In this document: one piece after another, positions 522 to 46,276 of the stretch
Numbering within the stretch: the first letter of the stretch is position 1
Layout of the letters: every line of letters starts with the position of its first letter
Notes under the pieces: model-generated
Database searches by the model: none
What the model was told of the DNA's origin: nothing
What the model saw: the letters and a program-made list of their open reading frames with translations, nothing else
Position numbers and translations under genes: made by a program
DNA from: a virus
Taxonomy: Duplodnaviria; Caudoviricetes
Length of the DNA: 56,299 nucleotides
Reading direction: 5' to 3' (one strand)
IMG/VR virus record: IMGVR_UViG_3300021368_000027
Coordinates: 1 to 56,299 of that record

Positions 522-903
522 CGACTCCTTGTGTTTCGAGCTTCTCGATTTCCGAAAGCGTTTCTTCGAGCCACTTGGCAAGCTTGCGTTTAATGTTAGA
601 TGCTTTTCTACGTCTTTGCTCAACTTCTATTCTCTTCTTTAGACCCATATGTGATATGTATCGGTCTGTTTCTTTACTCAACCACTGTGCTACTACTCTG
701 TAACTATACTGCTTGAGGTGACGTTTTGCAAGCTCTAATGCTTCTAATTCATGCTCAATAGGTACAAGTATTCTATCATTGTCAGGATCTACCTCGTAAC
801 CAAACGGTATCTTTCTTGTTAGCCTGACAATCTTGTGCCATTGTTTGTTGTGTGTCTTAGGAGGTTTAGGTAGTTGCCAAAACCCCAGTTCTCGTTGTGG
901 TAT
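448..903 (-). CDS. Putative DNA-binding protein resembling the recombinase domain of large serine recombinases; non-canonical start
   Basis: Frame of track ORF 448..681 stays open to ~912: IPQRELGFWQLPKPP...RKIPFGYEVDPDNDRILVPIEHELEALELAKRHLKQYSYRVVAQWLSKET...; ATA at 903-901 overlaps the terS stop (TAATA) behind GAAGGTGA. Confidence 0.6.
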   Translation of the reverse strand: MPQRELGFWQLPKPPKTHNKQWHKIVRLTRKIPFGYEVDPDNDRILVPIEHELEALELAKRHLKQYSYRVVAQWLSKETDRYISHMGLKKRIEVEQRRRKASNIKRKLAKWLEETLSEIEKLETQGVGAYSEASGDRSPPARTYPSAGSSP

Positions 904-1271
904 TATTCGTTCTCACCTTCTTTGGGTGGTAGATAGAAGATGCCACCACCGCTAGTAACATCTACTTTATCTACCTTACCAAGTCCTGCTCTGTCAAGCA
1001 AGTCTTTTGCTGCTACCATCTTTTCTTTTATGCCTAGCTCCGTTGGATCATACAACGCACCAACCATAGCCATAGCAGCTTTAGGAGCAGTACGTGCAAA
1101 AAATGTGCGAGTCTTCTCACCGATCTCATCCTTTAGAGATTCAACAATCGCTGCAGTGTTGCTGTTATCGCCGTAACCTGCCAGTTTTTTAGCAGCGACA
1201 ACATCACCATTAGCTTCATCAAATAGTACATCTAGAAACCGCTGCTGCTTATCTGTTAAATTTCTCGCCAT
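903..1271 (-). CDS. terS: Terminase small subunit
   Basis: N-terminal LTDKQQRFLD...AAKKLAGY HTH pattern typical of TerS, AAKDLLDRAG oligomerisation helix, located upstream of terL. Confidence 0.75.
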   Translation of the reverse strand: MARNLTDKQQRFLDVLFDEANGDVVAAKKLAGYGDNSNTAAIVESLKDEIGEKTRTFFARTAPKAAMAMVGALYDPTELGIKEKMVAAKDLLDRAGLGKVDKVDVTSGGGIFYLPPKEGENE

Positions 1272-1413
1272 ATATTGCTTCCCTTATTTGTGACCGACCT
1301 ATACCTAAGTCATTCAACTCTCTGTCGGTCATCATGTGCATCATACGAAAGTCTGCACGTTTTTGCTGTCTAATACAATGGTTATCCCATAGACGTTTTA
1401 ATAAATTTTTCAT
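1249..1413 (-). CDS. DUF1127 (YjiS-like) small protein, 54 aa (below ORF-track cutoff)
   Basis: MKNLLKRLWDNHCIRQQKRADFRMMHMMTDRELNDLGIGRSQIREAIYGEKFNR; matches the DUF1127 core (L/M)xDR(E)LxD(I/L)G(I/L)xRxxI; RBS AAAGGAGA 7 nt upstream. Confidence 0.85.
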   Translation of the reverse strand: MKNLLKRLWDNHCIRQQKRADFRMMHMMTDRELNDLGIGRSQIREAIYGEKFNR

Positions 1414-1444
1414 AGCACTATCTCCTTTGTTTGTGTGCGGAGAT

Positions 1445-1499
1445 AGTTATACTCAAATATACGTCAGGTAGTAGTACCTATTATTGCATACCCGATATG
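1445..1499 (-). promoter_or_regulatory. Candidate activator-dependent promoter of the DUF1127 gene
   Basis: -10-like TATAACT (1451-1445) as in other phage promoters, no TTGACA; dyad CATA-N5-TATG (1487-1499) overlapping a T-N11-A (LysR-type) box. Confidence 0.35.
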
Positions 1500-1775
1500 T
1501 TATTTCTTCTTTTTCATAGGACGTTCTGGTGGGTTAGATGCACCACAAGCTAGTCCTCCATGAGCCATGCCCATTTTCTTTTTAGCCATGCCACCATACA
1601 TGTAGCCCATCTTCTTTGCTACTGCAGGTGCAGCTTTCTTTAATGCTTTCATTCCTTCATTCATAGGTTTCTTTCCCATAACACCACCTTTGTTCATTTT
1701 AGATTTATGATAACCAGTACCTCCACAATGAGCGCACCCTTTGCCTTTACACTTTGGACATATAGTCTTCTTCAC
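1500..1775 (-). CDS. Small basic protein with DnaJ-type zinc finger and three xxGG motifs
   Basis: GTG start at 1775 after GGAGGA, overlapping upstream TGA; CPKCKGKGCAHCGGTG; MNKGG, MYGG, MAHGG; very Lys-rich. Confidence 0.75.
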   Translation of the reverse strand: MKKTICPKCKGKGCAHCGGTGYHKSKMNKGGVMGKKPMNEGMKALKKAAPAVAKKMGYMYGGMAKKKMGMAHGGLACGASNPPERPMKKKK

Positions 1776-2032
1776 TTTCGCTTCCTCCCTGAAGCTGTTA
1801 CTGACCATTTAACTTTCTTAGGTCCAGTCTTTTTTCTTGCTTCTGCTTTACTAATTCTACCTGCTACTGCTGCAGGTCTACATGCAGGGTAGGGTCTGTT
1901 CTTATCCTTGCCACCAGAACGCCCACACTTTTTGCCTGTCTTTACGTCACGCCAATCTTCCTTGAACCACTTAGTGAGTCCACCTTCAGCGTAACCTCTA
2001 CGACTTTCTAGTACGTGCTTTGACCTTTGCAA
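1772..2032 (-). CDS. Small basic hypothetical protein (GLxKWFKEDW...CGR...YPACRP type)
   Basis: Track ORF 1772..2062; TTG at 2032 follows GGAGG; K/R-rich, contains YAEGG. Confidence 0.7.
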   Translation of the reverse strand: MQRSKHVLESRRGYAEGGLTKWFKEDWRDVKTGKKCGRSGGKDKNRPYPACRPAAVAGRISKAEARKKTGPKKVKWSVTASGRKRK

Positions 2033-2180
2033 CTGAACCTCCCTTGCTGTAAGTACCCCCACGTGCTTTATACGTCTTAACTAGCCAAGCACTTCCGTAT
2101 GCGCTGGGCCACGTCTTAAACTTTCTCTTAGCTTCTGACTTTACTTTAGAATACAATGCTTTGTTCTTAGGTGTAGCCAT
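1998..2180 (-). CDS. Small basic hypothetical protein (WPSAY motif)
   Basis: MATPKNKALYSKVKSEAKRKFKTWPSAYGSAWLVKTYKARGGTYSKGG; TAATG coupling to upstream gene. Confidence 0.75.
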   Translation of the reverse strand: MATPKNKALYSKVKSEAKRKFKTWPSAYGSAWLVKTYKARGGTYSKGGSVAKVKARTRKS

Positions 2181-3945: not shown

Positions 3946-4624
3946 ATTCCTCTCCTACCTGTAATAAGGTATCCCAAAACTCTTTGTCTAATTCATAACC
4001 TACAACAAATAATGCAGGGTCTTCTCTGTATTTCTTTATAGCGTTCCTGCCCATGAGCAACTTACCAGTACGTGCATCATTTATAGGACACGGAGTATTG
4101 GCTAACATCATACTCCTGAACACTGTAGGATCTTGACACATCACTGAGATGGCAGACACCTGTAATCCTAACCCACCAACCTGTTGAGGTAAACCCAGCA
4201 ATCTAGCATTCTTCCTGCGATTGCAGTTGGGGTCTTGCTGCATCTCACCGTGAGACAGGCCAATTATATTTAACTGAAGCCCTCTGCTCTTCGGGATTAA
4301 GCAAGAGTCATTACCTCCCCCACCCATCATTGTTGGAGCTATGCTGGACATTACAGGACTGCTGCCTGGAGATGAACCTGCTCCGTTATAATTTATGACT
4401 TCACTTTGATTGTTTGAATCTACAACTGAATCTTCATAGTTGTTAGAAAAGTCACCTGTAACATCATTACCAGTATCTGTAGTCGTTGTGGTATTGTTAG
4501 TTATGCCATCATCTAGCTGCGTCTGTTCCTGTGCAGATACCGTAGTCGTCCACAAAACTAGGACTAATACACATAAGCTTAGTAGCTGCGTCTTTATGAC
4601 CGATAAGTGCGAGTGTTTGTGCAT
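3815..4624 (-). CDS. Secreted cysteine-containing protein
   Basis: Signal peptide ending TTVSA; low-complexity T/N/S linker; SIAP...DSC...CNRRKNAR...SVMCQD...TPCP motifs (4 Cys). Confidence 0.75.
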   Translation of the reverse strand: MHKHSHLSVIKTQLLSLCVLVLVLWTTTVSAQEQTQLDDGITNNTTTTTDTGNDVTGDFSNNYEDSVVDSNNQSEVINYNGAGSSPGSSPVMSSIAPTMMGGGGNDSCLIPKSRGLQLNIIGLSHGEMQQDPNCNRRKNARLLGLPQQVGGLGLQVSAISVMCQDPTVFRSMMLANTPCPINDARTGKLLMGRNAIKKYREDPALFVVGYELDKEFWDTLLQVGEEYDEAFTEVTTTKRSLSDQFRSSKRRGDGPSANNDRSGEDRPTN

Positions 4625-4745
4625 CTTGATTTCTCTGACATACAGTATCTCCCACCCTGCATGACGCTGTATATGTTATTGTTTGACAAGCTGTAACTAT
4701 CATTAATACGCATAGTTGTACGCAGAGTTTTAGCTTTGTCAACAC
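4509..4745 (-). CDS. Putative small lipoprotein
   Basis: MLTKLKLCVQLCVLMIVTAC lipobox-like signal, further Cys residues; overlaps next gene by ~115 nt. Confidence 0.5.
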   Translation of the reverse strand: MLTKLKLCVQLCVLMIVTACQTITYTASCRVGDTVCQRNQDAQTLALIGHKDAATKLMCISPSFVDDYGICTGTDAAR

Positions 4746-4747
4746 TT

Positions 4748-5008
4748 TTATCCTATGCCTTTACGTTTTCTTTCAGGGTCTAGTACTTCATGCTTTTCCA
4801 GGAAGCCCTCAAGGTACATAGCTCTTTCAATATGATCTAAAGTAAATCTTTTTCCTAGCCTAGCTTCCAGCGCCTCACGCACATAGAATACATCAGACTT
4901 AGGAATGTGTACACGTCTAAGGCGTTTATTGTCACCTTCCGCTATGGCATCGTAAAACTCTTCTATTACATCTTCAGAAGAGTACATACTTAGTTTCTGT
5001 TTATACAT
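4748..5008 (-). CDS. Hypothetical protein (86 aa)
   Basis: Start re-assigned to ATG 5008 (MYKQKLSMYSSEDVIEEFY...) after AGGTAGGA; the upstream extension in the track lies in a hairpin RNA element. Confidence 0.7.
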   Translation of the reverse strand: MYKQKLSMYSSEDVIEEFYDAIAEGDNKRLRRVHIPKSDVFYVREALEARLGKRFTLDHIERAMYLEGFLEKHEVLDPERKRKGIG

Positions 5009-5018
5009 TATCCTACCT

Positions 5019-5142
5019 AAAAAGGGGATATGTGTAGTATCTACATGTAGGAGGAGGAGACATGGAGGAAGAGTAACACACAGATTACTACACATACCCT
5101 AGTGTAACACTTATTGTTTGTTACATTATATTGTGTTACGTA
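5019..5142 (-). ncRNA. Candidate small RNA / leader with anti-Shine-Dalgarno (cuckoo-like) motifs
   Basis: Promoter immediately upstream; long stem 5100-5086 with 5039-5025 enclosing UACUCUUCCUCCAUGUCUCCUCCUCCUACAUG; ends in CCCCUUUUU; 5' hairpin GUAACAC/GUGUUAC. Confidence 0.6.
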
Positions 5143-5148
5143 ATAATA

Positions 5149-5177
5149 AGTATACAGATATACAGTAACACTGTCAA
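5149..5177 (-). promoter_or_regulatory. Sigma70-type promoter TTGACA-N17-TATACT (leftward)
   Basis: TTGACA 5177-5172, TATACT 5154-5149, 17 nt spacer, TG just before -10. Confidence 0.8.
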
Positions 5178-5248
5178 GTTAAACTTTACCTATGTCCAAT
5201 TATTTATTTAGTTTATTATTTATATCGTTTAACTTAAAAAGTTTAACT
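5177..5248. repeat. Perfect 11-bp inverted repeat flanking an AT-rich spacer
   Basis: AGTTAAACTTT (5177-5187) and AAAGTTTAACT (5238-5248), 50 nt apart. Confidence 0.7.
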
Positions 5249-5267
5249 ATCCTGCTCCTGCTCCGCA

Positions 5268-5295
5268 GTTATACCTAAAAAATGGGGTCTGTCAA
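5268..5295 (-). promoter_or_regulatory. Sigma70-type promoter TTGACA-N16-TATAAC (leftward)
   Basis: TTGACA 5295-5290, TATAAC 5273-5268. Confidence 0.7.
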
Positions 5296-5369
5296 GTATA
5301 AAAGAGACTAACTGCGACAATTTGTACCTCTCAAAAAACCACTTCTGTGTAGATATACGTATACACGTA

Positions 5370-5381
5370 GGGGTATACCCC
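5370..5381. other. GC-rich palindrome GGGGTATACCCC, possible genome-end/packaging site
   Basis: Perfect 12-bp palindrome in the otherwise AT-rich divergent region; function is inference. Confidence 0.35.
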
Positions 5382-5532
5382 CCAGTGGCCCTCGCCGCCC
5401 CAACGATTAAGGGCTGCTTTTACAGTTTAGACAGTGTTTTACTAGCTAAGTTACTGTATTTATTACACTTTTATACTGATATATCCTCAATATACTACTA
5501 AAAAGTGTTGTATTTGTGCAACATTCTAGAAA

Positions 5533-5589
5533 TGTGATCACAAATCAAGGAAGGATGCACAGTATATCCCCCCTTTTGTGATCACAAAT
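5533..5589. repeat. Duplicated palindrome TGTGATCACA (13-nt direct repeat TGTGATCACAAAT)
   Basis: Copies at 5533 and 5577, 44 bp apart; second extends to TTTGTGATCACAAA. Confidence 0.7.
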
Positions 5590-5627
5590 AAGCATACCCA
5601 CCCTATACAGTATATATATAATAATAA

Positions 5628-5672
5628 GAACAAACATAGAACAAACACTACAAAGCAGAACCAAACAAGAAC
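5628..5672 (+). promoter_or_regulatory. Two tandem alphaproteobacterial LexA (SOS) boxes, GAAC-N7-GAAC
   Basis: GAAC-AAACATA-GAAC (5628-5642) and GAAC-CAAACAA-GAAC (5658-5672). Confidence 0.7.
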
Positions 5673-5728
5673 AACTAAAAAAAGAATCGTTTAATTACAA
5701 CAACTTATAAAAAAGTTTAAAAAAGTAC

Positions 5729-5758
5729 TTGCAATCTATGTTGCGGTATGCCCTTAAT
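5729..5758 (+). promoter_or_regulatory. Candidate early promoter (rightward)
   Basis: A-tract UP-like element, TTGCAA at 5729-5734, CTTAAT at 5753-5758. Confidence 0.45.
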
Positions 5759-5877
5759 AGTACATCGAAAGCGACAAGTTAAAGCTTGAGAGTAGGCAAC
5801 AAGCCCTTGATCCTCAGATTAACAGCGTCCTTTTGACGGCTCGGTGAAATGCCCTAGCAAATACTAAAACTAAATAC

Positions 5878-5906
5878 TTGACTACAAATACAAATACTGA
5901 AAGACT
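5878..5906 (+). promoter_or_regulatory. Second candidate early promoter
   Basis: TTGACT (5878-5883), 17 nt, AAGACT; preceded by AAATAC. Confidence 0.35.
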
Positions 5907-6110
5907 GAATACAACATAACGAAAGATAATTGATACGATACAAAGTGAAACACATATACAGCGATAGCACATAGGCGTGGAAGTGAGAATACACTACAAG
6001 CCCAGTCGATAAGACACGCAATCAATAAACGTAGATGCTACTAAGATTGTGAGAGAGTTGACTTACTCATAACCACTGAAAAGGTGCTAACCTACTGTTT
6101 AACTGTTTCT

Positions 6111-6196
6111 GTATTTCTTGGACACATTAGCAGCTAATTTAGGCCAACCTAAACTTATGCTTGACATATGGGTTGCTGATGTGTCTTACTAAATAT
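6111..6196 (+). other. Branched RNA stem-loop directly before the first early RBS
   Basis: GACACATTAGCAGCT (6121-6135) pairs with GGTTGCTGATGTGTC (6171-6185), 15 bp with 3 G-U; inner hairpins TTTAGG/CCTAAA and TATG/CATA. Confidence 0.6.
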
Positions 6197-6207
6197 AGGA
6201 GGAAGCT

Positions 6208-6351
6208 ATGCAAGAATATTATTTAAGAGTTATGGACTGTGAGACTGGCTATAGCGAAATGTGGAAAGTAAAAGCTAATAGCGAACAAGAAGCTATTGAC
6301 AATGTAGAAAATAACTTTGAGAATAAAGAAGTAATAGAGGAGGACTTCTAA
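6208..6351 (+). CDS. Small acidic early protein, 47 aa (not in track)
   Basis: MQEYYLRVMDCETGYSEMWKVKANSEQEAIDNVENNFENKEVIEEDF; RBS AGGAGGA; TAATG coupling. Confidence 0.75.
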   Translation: MQEYYLRVMDCETGYSEMWKVKANSEQEAIDNVENNFENKEVIEEDF

Positions 6352-11026: not shown

Positions 11027-11943
11027 TGAAGAATATCCCCAAGCAGTCAGCCACCCTGACACAGATAGTAGATTTTTACTTGCACTCTGACGTGTTTCGT
11101 AGACTTTCTTCCTCCTCCCAAAAGGACTACGAGTCACACTTGCAAGCTGCTGTGCTGACACAGGTTGAAGGCAAGGCTCTTGGGGGTTATCGTTGTAAGA
11201 ACTTGAAGGTTCGACACATCACACAAGCATACGATCAATGGCTGTTGACTGGCACTCGCACTGCCAACTACAGACGCAGTGTCCTTTCCGCTGCGTGGAG
11301 ACATGCCATGAGGTATGATGTAATGATTCACAATCCAATCAGCTTAGTAAAGACTGAAGTACCTGAACCTCGTAGGGTACACTGGACACGTGAACAGGTG
11401 TCACTCTTTCTTGACACAGCTTACAGCGATTTTCGATGGCGCAGCATTGGACTGATAGTTCATATGGCATACGACTGGGGTCAACGTGTAGGAGATGTTC
11501 GGCTTCTTACATGGGATAGTTTAGACTTAAACAACTGTCGTATTGATATGACTCAGAGCAAGCGTAATGCAGAGGTACACCTCCCGATCTCTCATGGCTT
11601 GTGTTCAATGCTGCGTCAGCAGAAGGAAGACTTTGGATTCCAAGAGTACGTTGCTCCCAGGGTGAAGCCTAGAGCAGGTGCTTACACACCATATGACAAA
11701 GAAGAAATAGCTAATCTTATCAACGTGTTACTAGATGAAGCTAACCTACCACGTGAACTTACAGCTATGGATTTACGTAGGACAGCAGTGACTGAGATGA
11801 TGGAAGGTGGTGTTGACTTGGCAGGTATCATGCAAGTAACAGGTCACAAAAACACAGCATCAGTCAAGCCTTACATGGTGAACACATTCAGTGGTGCAAG
11901 CAAGGCACTAGCAGCGAGAGGTAAACAAGATGAAGATGCGTGA
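11026..11943 (+). CDS. int: Tyrosine recombinase / integrase
   Basis: GQRVGD (R), QSKRN (K), MDLRRT (HxxR box with His replaced by Met), TGHKN (H), VKPY (Y); N-terminal core-binding helices. Start ATG 11026 after AGGAGGA. Confidence 0.9.
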   Translation: MKNIPKQSATLTQIVDFYLHSDVFRRLSSSSQKDYESHLQAAVLTQVEGKALGGYRCKNLKVRHITQAYDQWLLTGTRTANYRRSVLSAAWRHAMRYDVMIHNPISLVKTEVPEPRRVHWTREQVSLFLDTAYSDFRWRSIGLIVHMAYDWGQRVGDVRLLTWDSLDLNNCRIDMTQSKRNAEVHLPISHGLCSMLRQQKEDFGFQEYVAPRVKPRAGAYTPYDKEEIANLINVLLDEANLPRELTAMDLRRTAVTEMMEGGVDLAGIMQVTGHKNTASVKPYMVNTFSGASKALAARGKQDEDA

Positions 11944-13001: not shown

Positions 13002-14184
13002 AGAGTTCTACAATCAACACAAGGGGATACGTTGCCCTGATAAGATCTTTAGCAAGGATGTACGTAAGATTAAGCAAGCATTGGATACAGCGATGGAGAC
13101 ATATGACAATGACTTCAATGTATCTGACTTGCAAGCGGTGTTCAATCGTATCAATGCAAGCATGACCACCGCTACACGTACAGCATATGAAGATCTGTTC
13201 AAGCGTATAGAATTAGCTGAACCTATCAAAGGTGAGATAGCAGAGGACACACTGTCTCAGTTGTTTCAGCAGCACGTGGGTGACCTCGTTGCTAACCTGG
13301 GGTTTGACTTTGTGAATGGTGCAGAGAATAGCCTTGAACCATTACGTAAACTATTAGAGGAATACAAAGATGACTTTACTCCAAATCTTCGTGTCGAGTG
13401 GGATGATCATAGTCTTGATACTGTACTTGATGCAACGGCACTTGATTCGAAATGGGCATTCAATATATCCAGTCTGGCTCGTAGGGTGGAGGGTATCAGT
13501 GGTGGTCATCTTATTCTGGTTGGCGCTCGTCCTAATACTGGAAAGACTAGCTTTCATGCCTCACTTGTAGCAGCAGAGGGTGGCTTTGCACATCAAGGTG
13601 CTAAGTGTATTGTACTGTGTAATGAAGAAGCATACACACGTGTGGCTGCACGATACATCAGTGCTTCATCTAACATGACAATGACTGAGGTACGTACCAA
13701 CAAAGCCCTAGCATCCAAGCGATACCATCCTGTGTCTGAGAACATACAGTTCAAGGATAGTACTGGCAAGGGCATGGACTGGGTAGAGTCTGTCGTTAAG
13801 TACGAGAAGCCTGACATAGTTATACTAGACATGGGTGACAAGTTTGCTGACATCAAGTCAGAACGTTCAGACATTACACTCAAGGCAGCAGCTATCCATG
13901 CACGTAACATAGCCAAGCAGTATGACTGTGCTGTGATATGGATGTCTCAACTATCAGCAGAAGCAGAGGGCAGGGCTGACCTGAACCAAGCTATGATGGA
14001 AGGTAGTAAGACAGGTAAGGCAGCAGAGGCTGACCTGATGGTACTCATTGGTAAAACACAGCAAGCAGAAGGAGAAGAGGAAGACCCTATCAGATACTTG
14101 AACATAGCTAAGAACAAACTGAATGGCTATCAAGGTAAGATTACCTGTGTGCTTGACGGTTCAAGATCAGTGTACTCAGCATGA
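12964..14184 (+). CDS. Replicative DNA helicase (DnaB/SF4)
   Basis: Walker A GARPNTGKT, IVILD, MSQLS, IAKNKLNG motifs. Confidence 0.93.
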   Translation: MMELALIKTLLDREFYNQHKGIRCPDKIFSKDVRKIKQALDTAMETYDNDFNVSDLQAVFNRINASMTTATRTAYEDLFKRIELAEPIKGEIAEDTLSQLFQQHVGDLVANLGFDFVNGAENSLEPLRKLLEEYKDDFTPNLRVEWDDHSLDTVLDATALDSKWAFNISSLARRVEGISGGHLILVGARPNTGKTSFHASLVAAEGGFAHQGAKCIVLCNEEAYTRVAARYISASSNMTMTEVRTNKALASKRYHPVSENIQFKDSTGKGMDWVESVVKYEKPDIVILDMGDKFADIKSERSDITLKAAAIHARNIAKQYDCAVIWMSQLSAEAEGRADLNQAMMEGSKTGKAAEADLMVLIGKTQQAEGEEEDPIRYLNIAKNKLNGYQGKITCVLDGSRSVYSA

Positions 14185-16232
14185 GACTAGTGCTAGACGT
14201 AGAGAACACTGTCACTAAGCGTGACGATAAGGTTCACCTTGATCCCTTTGAACCTACCAATCATTTAGTACAGGTGGGTATGCTAGATGCTGATGATCCT
14301 AAAGCTACCCTGACTATCAAGACACTAGATCACAATGAAGCTACTGACTTCACAGGCTTTCAAAGACTAGAGGTACAGTGGAACTTAGACAACACTGATC
14401 TACTTATCATGCACAATGCACAGCACGACTTAATGTGGCTGTGGGAATGTGGCTTCAAGTATGACGGTGCTATCTATGACACTATGCTTGCTGAGTATAT
14501 CTTAGATCGTGGGCAGAGAAACGGACTAAGCCTCCAGGCTTGTGCAGAACGTAGACAACTAAAGGTACAGAAGGATGATACACTCAAGAAGTATTTCAAA
14601 GAAGGTAAGAACACAAACGAGATACCGTTGGAAGAACTCTGCTTTTATCTTGAGCATGACTTGCTTACTACTTGTGAGTTGTTCCACGCTCAAGAAGCAG
14701 ACTTCGCCAAGCCTGAAGCTGCCTCCCTTAGTACAATCAAAAGAGTTACCTTCAACACCTGCAAGACCCTCACAGAAATCTATATGGCAGGATTCAAAGT
14801 CGATCTTCCAGAGTTGGAAAGAGTAGCAAAGGAGTTTGAAAATGAGAAAGCTGAAATCGAAACACGTCTGCAAAAGAAAGTCAGGGAAGTTATGGGGGAT
14901 ACTCCGATCAACCTACGTTCACCTGAACAGAAGTCGCAGGTATTATTCAGCAGAAGAGTACATGACAAGAAAGAATGGGCTGATCTCTTCGAGTTCACTA
15001 CGACACAAGAAGAGTTTAAGGATGCCGTTAAAGCCAACTCCTCACCGATCTACAGGACACAGGCATACACCTGCCCTAGTTGCGAAGGGCAAGGTAAAGT
15101 ATACCGACTTAAAAAAGATGGAACAAAGTTTGCTAGACCGAATAAATGCAAAGATTGTAATGCACAAGGATACAAACTAAAGGATAGCAAACAGATAGCA
15201 GGGCTACGCTTTACTGCACCAAGTAAGAAGTGGGTCAGTGCTAATGGATTCAACACAGGAAAGGATGAACTAGATGTACTTTCTTCAACTGCTAAGAACA
15301 ATAGAATGGACGAGGCTTTTAATTTCCTTTCTGACCTTAAACGTCATAATGCTGTCTCTTCTTATCTATCTGCTTTTGTCAACGGAATACGGACATACAC
15401 TAAGGCAAACGGATTCCTGCACGTTGGACTTACTCAGCATATTACAGCCACTGGACGTTTCAGTGGAAGAAATCCCAACATGCAAAACATGCCAAGAGGA
15501 GGTACATTCCCAGTAAAGAAAGTATTTGTATCACGATTTGATAATGGATTAATAATGGAGGCCGACTTTGCACAACTCGAATTTAGGACAGCAGCGTTCT
15601 TGGCACAGGATGAAACAGCGATGCGAGAGATTGCAACTGGTTTCGATGTACATGCTTACACAGCAAAAGTTATTACTGATGCAGGGCAACCAACATCACG
15701 TCAAGAAGCTAAAGAACACACGTTTGCACCGCTCTTTGGAGCAAGCGGTTATGGACGTACAAAAGCTGAAGCAACGTACTACACCCACTTCAATGAAAAG
15801 TACAAAGGCATAGCTAACTGGCACAGGAACTTAGCTGACGAGGCACTACGCTTCATGAAGATAACAAACATATCAGGCAGACAGTACGCTTTCCCTGATG
15901 TGACAAGACGTAGCAGTGGTGTACCAACGCACTTCACAATGATAAAGAACTATCCAGTGCAGGGCTTTGCTACTGGTGATGTAGTGCCAGTGGTACTCAA
16001 TGAAATGCATGAACGTTTACGACATATGAAGTCGTGTTTAGTTAACACTGTACATGATTCTATGGTAGTAGATGTACATCCTGACGAGAAAGACTTAGTG
16101 TTGTCTCTTGTTTGGACTATGAACCAAGACTTAAACAATATAATAGAGGAGACATATGGTATAAAGATGAATGTTCCTATGCTTTTAGAAGCAAAGATAG
16201 GAAAGAATTGGCTTGACACAGTTGATATATAG
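14181..16232 (+). CDS. polA: Family A DNA polymerase with 3'-5' exonuclease and DnaJ-type Zn-finger insertion
   Basis: Exo I DVE, Exo II HNAQHD, Exo III YLEHD; TATGRFS, NMQN, motif A DFAQLEFR, motif B RQEAKEHTFAPLFG, motif C VHDS; CPSCEGQG...CKDCNAQG insertion. Confidence 0.96.
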   Translation: MRLVLDVENTVTKRDDKVHLDPFEPTNHLVQVGMLDADDPKATLTIKTLDHNEATDFTGFQRLEVQWNLDNTDLLIMHNAQHDLMWLWECGFKYDGAIYDTMLAEYILDRGQRNGLSLQACAERRQLKVQKDDTLKKYFKEGKNTNEIPLEELCFYLEHDLLTTCELFHAQEADFAKPEAASLSTIKRVTFNTCKTLTEIYMAGFKVDLPELERVAKEFENEKAEIETRLQKKVREVMGDTPINLRSPEQKSQVLFSRRVHDKKEWADLFEFTTTQEEFKDAVKANSSPIYRTQAYTCPSCEGQGKVYRLKKDGTKFARPNKCKDCNAQGYKLKDSKQIAGLRFTAPSKKWVSANGFNTGKDELDVLSSTAKNNRMDEAFNFLSDLKRHNAVSSYLSAFVNGIRTYTKANGFLHVGLTQHITATGRFSGRNPNMQNMPRGGTFPVKKVFVSRFDNGLIMEADFAQLEFRTAAFLAQDETAMREIATGFDVHAYTAKVITDAGQPTSRQEAKEHTFAPLFGASGYGRTKAEATYYTHFNEKYKGIANWHRNLADEALRFMKITNISGRQYAFPDVTRRSSGVPTHFTMIKNYPVQGFATGDVVPVVLNEMHERLRHMKSCLVNTVHDSMVVDVHPDEKDLVLSLVWTMNQDLNNIIEETYGIKMNVPMLLEAKIGKNWLDTVDI

Positions 16233-45271: not shown

Positions 45272-46276
45272 CTAAACCTTTGTGATTGTAACATATCCAT
45301 GACCTCTCGTAGAAGCAACGGTATTAGTTTGGTTAGAACCGTTGTTTACGCTTCCTCCACCTCCTCCCATGCAATTTCCTGATGAAGAATTTTGACTTCC
45401 TGTGCCACCTCCAGAGTATCCTCCTCCACCGCCACAGCCACGGAAACCAGTTCTCTGAGTGAATCCACCACCCCCAAAAGGCCCATCACGACCATCATCG
45501 GGGTGAGTGCCTAGAGCGCCTTCTGCTCCATTAACAAAAGCATCCCCTCCATAGCCAAATCCAGTAGATTGTGAGTTATATGCACCATTAGTTAAAAAGC
45601 CACCACCGCCTGTGGCACGATTTGTAGAGCTACCACCAGATCCATTTGTACCGCCATTTGAACTACTAGTAGCACCATAACCGTTACCTCCACTAGTGCT
45701 TAACTGACCATTTTTGCGGTTGTATGGGTTAGATACTGCTGTAACATTATAAGAATCTCCTCCTCCACCTCCTGCTACAATCAAAGCATTACTGAGAGCC
45801 GTATAAGGTGCTTCAACTACAAAAGATCCTCCCCCACCAGTACCATTAATATAAGTGGGGTATTGTGTTAGTCCTTCTTGTCCTACAACAATTTTTATAA
45901 CCGCACCTTGAGATAAAGTAAAAGTTCCTGTATAGTCTGCGCCATACCCAGAATATGGACCTCCTCCACTTGCCCCCACACATTGTATAGTATAAGCACC
46001 ATTAGCAGGAACAGTCCACTCTTGGATACCACGAGTGGTAGCATTGAGATAAGCTGTGTTTTGAGTCCATGATTCTGCAGAATAAGCTGTTTGAAGGTCC
46101 GATAAAGTTGGGCCTAATCTGCCAGTGTCACCTGCATTTGTAAATGTAAACGAGCTAAATGCGTACAAACCATCGCCTACTATATGCCCTGTTACCACGT
46201 CAAATTTGCCAGCTTTAGTAGGAGCAGCTATATCACTTCCAATATAACTTCCAAAGCGATGATAATTAAATGGCAT
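45272..46276 (-). CDS. Glycine-rich virion protein (ALK/LTK-like Gly-rich pattern)
   Basis: GIQEWTVP..G.Y.I...GASGG, IVVGQ.G, GGGGSF, VAGGGGG, GGGGGYSGG, G.VTIT. Confidence 0.7.
   Translation of the reverse strand: MPFNYHRFGSYIGSDIAAPTKAGKFDVVTGHIVGDGLYAFSSFTFTNAGDTGRLGPTLSDLQTAYSAESWTQNTAYLNATTRGIQEWTVPANGAYTIQCVGASGGGPYSGYGADYTGTFTLSQGAVIKIVVGQEGLTQYPTYINGTGGGGSFVVEAPYTALSNALIVAGGGGGDSYNVTAVSNPYNRKNGQLSTSGGNGYGATSSSNGGTNGSGGSSTNRATGGGGFLTNGAYNSQSTGFGYGGDAFVNGAEGALGTHPDDGRDGPFGGGGFTQRTGFRGCGGGGGYSGGGTGSQNSSSGNCMGGGGGSVNNGSNQTNTVASTRGHGYVTITKV

Follow-up and report, generated by a model that had tools for sequence, protein, structure and literature searches.

What does the short open reading frame (ORF) on the minus strand beside the terminase genes of IMGVR_UViG_3300021368_000027 encode, and does its product act on a phage RNA, on DNA packaging or on the host? 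The record, whose 56,299 nucleotides (nt) make up the window discussed here, is the complete genome of an HMO-2011-type roseophage. An earlier note, made from the letters of the window, had read the ORF as a hidden DUF1127 small protein of the packaging operon and as a possible partner of an RNA with cuckoo-like features encoded nearby. Our analysis shows that the ORF is a real, translated-type gene under purifying selection, which encodes an all-helical protein of the DUF1127 family, and that it moves together with a control region of its own. We tentatively favor the reading that this autonomous cassette encodes a mimic of the small DUF1127 regulators of the host, which would act on host machinery, with a PhoR-type kinase as the likeliest target. 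Two features are needed from the outset:

1249..1413, minus strand: DUF1127 small-protein gene, 54 codons plus stop, the final 23 nt of which overlap the start of the next gene
903..1271, minus strand: small terminase subunit gene (TerS), with weak Terminase_2 and phrog_2538 matches, the downstream neighbor of the DUF1127 gene

A DUF1127 gene under purifying selection

The 54-amino acid (aa) product, MKNLLKRLWDNHCIRQQKRADFRMMHMMTDRELNDLGIGRSQIREAIYGEKFNR, carries at residues 29-43 the core TDRELNDLGIGRSQI by which the earlier note had recognized the family. Its proposed check, a search with the Pfam hidden Markov model for DUF1127 (PF06568), returned a score above the gathering threshold (25.3 versus 23.3 bits, E 1.3e-5), and the ORF was the only PF06568 match in a genome-wide scan. 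The same model was matched by 15/15 diverse phage members of the family (best E 2.1e-9), with scores of 30.5 and 30.1 bits for the copies in the cultured phages CRP-207 and CRP-603. DUF1127 proteins have been described as small, with about 14% arginine and a conserved D-[IL]-G-[IL] core (PMC12501420, PMC11707872). In the window's protein, arginine accounts for 8 of 54 residues (14.8%) and DLGI occupies residues 35-38, while L33, D35, G37, I38, R40 and I43 are invariant across 15 phage sequences.

To avoid selecting for the ORF itself, relatives were sampled through the neighboring TerS gene, yielding 80 IMG/VR loci. A homologue was found in 75 of these, in every case on the TerS strand. Four of the remaining five loci have just 0.5-1.4 kb of sequence upstream of TerS, and the fifth (L018) lacks the gene with 4.1 kb upstream. 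The gene is also present in 11 cultured CRP roseophages of the HMO-2011 type. Among 11 close sequences, the median ratio of nonsynonymous to synonymous substitution rates (dN/dS) was 0.245 over 48 pairs, calculated for codons 1-46 and so outside the TerS overlap, and the closest pair had a dN of 0 against a dS of 0.42.

An AlphaFold2 model built from 92 sequences consists of three helices (predicted local distance difference test score, pLDDT, 85). Comparison of this model with the PDB using Foldseek gave no match at E<=0.001 (best E 6), VIA-align against 48,161 chains found generic helical hairpins only (best Z 5.3), and the best match in a sequence search of the PDB had an E of 0.43. A SAM-like or helix-turn-helix fold was considered, and the structure searches of the model yielded no fold assignment.

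A profile of the phage proteins recovered 2,749 cluster representatives at E<=1e-3 among 1.84 billion proteins. The profile also matches long multi-repeat proteins (P0122 and others), one of them 1894 aa long with 13 matched stretches, and many of the matched proteins of 160-300 aa hold two to four copies of the domain. In PHROGs, the protein fell into the unnamed family phrog_26566 only (E 1.3e-4). A single-protein scan of bacteria revealed no close homologue: its 17 matches were at most 46% identical outside a core of 16-17 residues, over which identity to Agrobacterium and Rhizobium proteins is 88-94%, and one of the 17 (L085) is a phage contig of the same group that had been binned in a metagenome-assembled genome.

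The earlier note had also supposed that the gene was overlooked, which proved not to be so: the ORF is already in public gene calls, with the exact 54-aa protein recorded from 28 contigs of the public protein collection, the longest of which matches the window in length (56,299 nt). A precomputed PF06568 label is attached to many relatives, and the Joint Genome Institute (JGI) name 'uncharacterized protein YjiS (DUF1127 family)' to some. GenBank relatives are likewise annotated, the CRP-207 homologue (gp64) as hypothetical and that of CRP-603 (gp69) as 'DUF1127 domain-containing protein'. As annotation goes, the gene is an ordinary member of its family, already recorded in relatives.

Three marine metatranscriptome libraries hold 5-8% of the sampled words, and contigs from relatives that are 90-99% alike cover 1197-1494 in all three runs, although these libraries may contain DNA. 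One contig spans TerS and the ORF (893-1438); starts and ends are not readable from such contigs, which are no proof of transcription.

A conserved control region travels with the gene

Upstream of the gene lies a control region of about 85 nt, made up of a box, a spacer of 33-34 nt, TATAAC and a hairpin that buries the Shine-Dalgarno (SD) sequence:

1486..1499, minus strand: conserved upstream box CATATCGGGTATGC, core T..CGG.TAT.C, 34 nt upstream of TATAAC
1445..1452, minus strand: invariant GTATAACT, likely -10 element (TATAAC at 1451..1446), found in 18/18 aligned sequences
1417..1447, minus strand: 5' hairpin ACUAUCUCC / GGAGAUAGU, 9 bp with a 13-nt loop, the 3' arm containing the SD sequence

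The box, written as T[AG][AGT]CGGNTAT[GT]C, and TATAAC were found upstream of the gene in 77/77 relatives with enough upstream sequence, always 33-34 nt apart. The 41 unique spacers between the two vary in sequence and appear unstructured (mean z -0.56); fixed spacing with free sequence points to recognition on DNA rather than through an RNA fold. A structured RNA between box and TATAAC had been entertained as a candidate and was dropped on the same figures. A -10 role for TATAAC is best supported by CRP-3, CRP-738 and CRP-235, in which the same box recurs and the consensus TATAAT stands 34-36 nt downstream of it, in two cases as TGnTATAAT.

Two upstream motifs named in the earlier note can be judged against this conservation. 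TATAACT is present at 1451..1445 of the minus strand (GTATAACTA), and the TATAAC within it is kept in all 77 upstream regions. The CATA-N5-TATG dyad also exists, at 1499..1487 of the minus strand, immediately behind the upstream gene's stop codon, but its symmetry did not hold up, since the outer CATA/TATG arms vary among relatives (GGTTAACGGGTATGC in one clade, for example) and it is the asymmetric T..CGG.TAT.C that is invariant in 18/18 aligned sequences. Counts within the window are no higher than chance for these short motifs (37 matches to GTATAACTA with at most one mismatch versus 29.1 expected; 22 matches to CGGGTATGCA with at most two mismatches versus 30.9 expected), and conservation shows that they are functional despite such counts. 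There is no -35 element at the putative cassette promoter, which a simple sigma-70 scan does not list. The box is likely to be a protein-binding site centered near -52, and a promoter of this kind would rely on a factor bound there. The control of DUF1127 genes in Rhizobiales by a LysR-type regulator, named in the earlier note, is background here.

The strong ribosome-binding site (RBS) that had been noted is AAGGAG at 1427..1422, 8 nt before the ATG. In the window, a helix between 1447..1439 and 1425..1417 encloses it (minimum free energy -12.6 kcal/mol, z -5.5), and in 35/35 unique relatives the stretch that directly follows TATAAC is predicted to pair with the SD region in a hairpin (mean z -3.9). 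Three clades build this SD-burying hairpin from three different helix designs. Because the clades use different helices, an RNAalifold consensus on the alignment of the upstream region contained no pairs, and the sequences were then folded singly. Since the first bases of the hairpin's 5' arm (1447..1439) already belong to the -10 hexamer, transcripts started at the cassette promoter would lack that arm and leave the RBS free. Transcripts reading through from the operon promoter would instead have the RBS closed.

A cassette at variable distances from the small terminase gene

Among the 80 loci, the position of the cassette varies within the stretch that separates TerS from the first gene of the leftward operon. 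It overlaps the TerS start in 52 loci, where the ORF ends 19-40 nt inside TerS; in a further 13 its distance upstream of TerS is below 1 kb, and in 10 it amounts to 1-2.2 kb. The homologue of the first operon gene has the cassette right in front of its promoter in CRP-738 and CRP-235. In two loci (L070 and L055), the gene that precedes the cassette elsewhere, encoding 214 aa, is joined straight to TerS and the cassette is missing. Mosaicism between the 214-aa gene and TerS is more general: some close relatives, with TerS 89-98% identical, lack there the entire block of small basic-protein genes as well as the DUF1127 cassette, and L018 has 2.5 kb of unrelated DNA in place of that block.

Could the protein be a packaging accessory factor, translationally coupled to TerS? 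The overlap in 52/80 loci could mean coupling to the packaging genes and in this respect weighs against an autonomous cassette, and the block of DNA similarity shared with CRP-207 runs from the large terminase subunit gene (TerL) through the cassette and ends at 1498. The same survey places the gene 0.5-2.2 kb from TerS, with other genes between, in 23/80 loci, and about 1.8-1.9 kb upstream of TerS in CRP-3 and CRP-738. Elsewhere among phages the gene lies in early regions or in those for nucleotide metabolism (beside MazG and the ribonucleotide reductase in SIO1 and beside the ribonucleotide reductase in Melnitz), and HMO-2011 packages its DNA with no DUF1127 gene at all. A packaging role is very improbable, and the earlier description of a packaging-operon gene was too narrow for a gene with its own conserved control region and a variable distance from TerS.

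The arrangement would instead fit an autonomous, moron-like transcription unit. Morons are autonomous promoter-gene units inserted between phage genes, as in the lambdoid phages. Like them, the cassette combines a small accessory gene, a conserved promoter-like element and variable insertion points in an integrase-bearing phage. Unlike them, it has no terminator identified after the gene, which runs into TerS in most relatives, and its expression from a prophage is putative, conceivable on account of the integrase in the window. No terminator-like site follows the DUF1127 ORF, whose last 23 nt are shared with TerS; the closest such site lies within TerS, at 1120..1107, in a scan that performed at chance level overall.

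A structured leader RNA outside the known cuckoo family

The RNA to which the gene had been linked lies at the head of the same strand's operon:

5019..5142, minus strand: leader RNA 'R1', a short hairpin, a long hairpin with a 27-nt loop holding three CCUCC, and a U tract
5149..5177, minus strand: near-consensus sigma-70 promoter TTGACA-17-TATACT, 11/12 matches, conserved in relatives
4748..5008, minus strand: 86-aa gene, first of the leftward operon, directly after the leader RNA and conserved

This is a well-supported structured RNA present in one copy per genome. Its fold has a z of -3.0, its loop sequence is conserved, and 7/20 consensus pairs show compensatory changes in 24 sequences. 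A covariance model finds a single copy in the window (4999..5142, 121.7 bits) and recovers the RNA in 32/80 IMG/VR loci and in CRP-207, always directly before the 86-aa first gene. A divergent version with a CU-rich loop occurs in CRP-603, and HMO-2011 keeps the promoter and first gene with no CU-rich hairpin. To judge by its sequence, the promoter would start the RNA near 5142. Contigs from the metatranscriptomes give next to no cover of 5019-5142.

Resemblance to cuckoo RNAs lies in the loop, which includes a CCUCCUCCU stretch with 8/9 positions of the cuckoo motif. In a loose sense, cuckoo RNAs carry the CCUCCUCCC anti-SD motif in hairpin loops, with two hairpins and one motif in each; here a single loop holds three CCUCC, and the first hairpin has no such motif. 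The Rfam family ar14 (RF02344) is reported to hold the cuckoo RNAs, including CcsR (PMC8034643). Searches of the leader RNA gave no Rfam family at gathering score and no ar14 match at E<=10 within 4600-6300, and the only ar14 match in the genome scored 5.6 bits at 45355. In an Agrobacterium genome used as a control, ar14 found three copies at 101-115 bits. The leader-RNA model in turn detected no copy in 151 sampled alphaproteobacterial genomes (0/151), a sample rather than proof of absence. By its predicted loop the leader RNA is anti-SD-like, and judged from these searches it is outside the known cuckoo family; it is possibly a free anti-SD small RNA, or a terminator or attenuator heading the leftward operon.

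The protein and the leader RNA are doubtful partners

The earlier note saw in the DUF1127 protein a possible partner of the leader RNA; in full, this reading would make it a dedicated chaperone or maturation factor for that RNA, as in a phage copy of the CcaF1-CcsR pair. CcaF1 of Rhodobacter is reported to be co-transcribed with the CcsR RNAs, to bind them and to affect their maturation (PMC8034643). Part of the proposal stands, in that both elements are real and conserved and share a strand within a single long transcription unit that runs leftward, with the 3' end of the RNA 3606 nt upstream of the ORF start (the note had said about 3.6 kb) and about eight genes between. The three CCUCC and the CCUCCUCCU stretch of the loop also speak for it. 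Co-occurrence, which the note had put forward as a check, holds in one direction: the gene is present in 32/32 IMG/VR loci that contain the RNA, and HMO-2011 and the freshwater relative MW202701 lack both.

It does not hold in the other. CRP-3, CRP-738 and CRP-235 carry the DUF1127 cassette, and their whole records contain no such RNA and no CCUCC cluster above control. At another locus (L071), the DUF1127 gene and the first gene of the operon are present and no leader RNA lies within 1 kb. In five further lineages with a DUF1127 gene (phiM12, SIO1, CRP-7, Melnitz and Atu_ph07), there was no ar14 match and no R1 match better than E 0.8; four of these contain no clustered CCUCC, and the two found in the remaining one do not exceed the control level and lie over 40 kb away from its DUF1127 gene. 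Across 36 loci, gene and RNA are 1.8-6.3 kb apart and never adjacent, and neither the 86-nt region upstream of the gene nor the TerS overlap contains a CCUCC cluster. Co-occurrence within one clade amounts to a single evolutionary event. Since the distribution of the RNA is nested in that of the gene, and phage DUF1127 genes generally come without such an RNA, we regard a dedicated partnership as doubtful. With the ar14 result and the 151 alphaproteobacterial genomes, the claim that the phage carries both halves of a host-like module is not supported.

A bolder version would place the partnership in the subgroup of HMO-2011-type roseophages that includes the window's genome, where the protein would mature or load a strongly transcribed anti-SD leader RNA and the two would jointly hijack the CcsR/CcaF1 stress network of the host. 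The gene would moreover be translated only from transcripts of its own promoter, since the hairpin arm that pairs with its SD sequence would lie between the -10 element and the start site. We consider such a two-part riboregulatory module improbable.

A possible mimic of host DUF1127 regulators

Our preferred reading, that the cassette encodes a mimic of host DUF1127 regulators, would have the protein act on host machinery rather than on phage RNA. Its likeliest activity would be binding to the sensor kinase PhoR, thereby setting the phosphate regulon. Small DUF1127 proteins of Agrobacterium and YjiS of Escherichia coli reportedly bind PhoR, and DUF1127 proteins from Sinorhizobium, Rhodobacter (CcaF1 included) and E. 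coli are reported to restore control of pstS in an Agrobacterium triple mutant (PMC12501420). This activity leads among the candidates because it has been reported as common to the family and because the phage protein has the same short, domain-only format.

A number of points weigh against the reading. The Pfam match covers the C-terminal half alone, at positions 21-37 of the 37 in the profile. The box occurs as a single exact copy in the window and its regulator is putative, and both the promoter and the model of an open versus a closed RBS are drawn from spacing and conservation. DUF1127 functions also differ between organisms, CcaF1 being described as an RNA binder (PMC8034643). The target in Rhodobacteraceae would therefore be a guess, and what a marine phage would gain from damping the phosphate regulon is not obvious.

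RNA binding of the CcaF1 type is a close second to the PhoR-type mimic. The protein would then be a general RNA binder that alters RNase E-dependent processing or stability of host or phage transcripts, with no dedicated phage RNA. CcaF1 of Rhodobacter is reported to bind RNAs and to affect CcsR maturation and RNA turnover (PMC8034643). The arginine content of 14.8% is a family hallmark that has been tied to RNA binding (PMC12501420; PMC8034643), and the hosts belong to the Rhodobacteraceae, in which CcaF1 and two further DUF1127 proteins reportedly bind RNA (PMC12501420). Long polycistronic phage operons would presumably gain from altered RNA turnover. Structure searches of the AlphaFold2 model, however, recognized no RNA-binding fold, and the protein is short and domain-only like the PhoR-binding proteins, in contrast to the 71 aa of CcaF1 (PMC8034643). 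YjiS of Salmonella, moreover, is described as membrane-associated and is reported to show no RNA association (PMC11707872). On balance, a general RNA binder is possible, if somewhat unlikely.

Phage carriage and comparison with known systems

A translated search (tblastn) with an Agrobacterium DUF1127 protein located 39 phage records with the domain, which belong to several types that are not related to one another and include phages of Rhizobiales, Rhodobacterales and Methylophilales; annotated examples are found in Methylophilales phage Melnitz (gp46) and Rhizobium phage RHph_I1_18. The analysis shows that phages of Alphaproteobacteria and Methylophilales have acquired the domain repeatedly, and that the abundant marine HMO-2011-type roseophages keep it under selection with a dedicated, conserved control region. 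The window's gene shares its Pfam family with these annotated phage ORFs and, with the CRP phages, the same cassette and synteny as well. In the literature searched, no paper linked DUF1127 to phage-encoded copies, roseophages or HMO-2011, though the supplementary tables of PMC9038755 may list the family.

Like the small DUF1127 proteins (SDPs) of Agrobacterium tumefaciens and YjiS of E. coli and Salmonella, the phage protein is domain-only (about 47-54 residues), contains about 14% arginine and is predicted to be helical. It shares the ...DRELxDIGIxR... core with the Agrobacterium and Rhizobium copies, at the 88-94% identity over 16-17 residues given above. Unlike the SDPs and YjiS, it is phage-encoded and, over its full length, no more than 46% identical to any bacterial copy found, and its kinase binding is putative. 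The likeness to CcaF1-CcsR (CIN1) of Rhodobacter sphaeroides and other Alphaproteobacteria consists in a DUF1127 gene and a CCUCC-loop RNA on one strand with a link to Rhodobacteraceae. CIN1 is defined by adjacency, its RNAs lying in the 5' or 3' untranslated region of a DUF1127 gene, as described in PMC8034643, whereas the phage gene and RNA are 3.6 kb apart and the phage RNA has no ar14 match. The phage RNA further has one large loop with several motifs where CIN1 RNAs have two loops with one motif each, and CcaF1 has 71 aa compared with the 54 aa of the phage protein.

DUF1127 is a large and poorly understood family of bacterial small proteins, for which binding to RNA or to sensor kinases is disputed. 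Phage copies are natural minimal versions obliged to act on a host target, which makes them convenient probes of what the domain does. If PhoR is the target, they would represent a new route by which marine phages touch host phosphate signaling. What this analysis adds is how widely phages carry the domain, the conserved two-part control element, the hairpin that closes the RBS at a putative promoter, and the negative result on the cuckoo link.

Genome setting and further observations

The record is a complete, circularly permuted virus genome (CheckV 100%), in which the large terminase gene is divided between the two record ends. It is related to the cultured Roseobacter phages CRP-207, -1, -2, -9, -13, -212, -345 and -603 and is also a relative of Puniceispirillum phage HMO-2011; the HMO-2011-type podovirus group has been described in PMC9038755. 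Among the cultured phages compared here, CRP-3 is reported to integrate. The plus strand encodes an integrase, a primase, a DnaB-like helicase, a family A DNA polymerase and a ribonucleotide reductase between 6.2 and 22.5 kb. The minus strand forms one long leftward block from near 5177, with small accessory genes followed by the terminase genes, and continues across the record ends into structural genes. The TerS homologues of CRP-207 and CRP-603 are annotated as putative TerS.

The 86-aa first gene of this block has homologues in 36/80 loci and in HMO-2011, and has no family match in Pfam or PHROG. In many relatives (L058, L079, L030 and others) and in HMO-2011 (L104, 11176-11190), its start codon lies inside ...AAAGT(A/G)TTGACAATG, such that a perfect -35-like TTGACA overlaps the ATG and no SD sequence is found there. 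The window's clade carries AGGTAGGATAATG at this start in place of the TTGACAATG context.

Just upstream of the cassette, a 102-aa protein (1500-1808, minus strand) contains a CxxCxGxG-type zinc motif (CPKCKGKGCAHCGGTG) that resembles a partial DnaJ motif inside the DNA polymerase of the group (14181-16232, plus strand). Farther upstream, at 1772-2180, the Pfam family DUF5872 is divided over two overlapping minus-strand ORFs, with profile positions 1-44 in ORF 1998..2180 and positions 46-88 in ORF 1772..2062, in the +1 frame. The distant relative L085 has the same split (923..1231 and 1131..1484), which could be a programmed frameshift or two genes.

On the minus strand, a G-rich block (GGGGCGGCGAGGGCCACTGGGGGG...) followed by TATAC-type repeats lies at about 5351-5403, a position kept in HMO-2011 (L104, about 11600-11650) and in CRP-603 (L002, about 600-640). 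In the divergent control region, TTTGTGATCACA (palindrome TGTGATCACA) occurs twice, 44 nt apart, at about 5533-5588. The pair is also found in CRP-603 (L002, about 405-450), and the two copies look like operators in an integrase-bearing phage.

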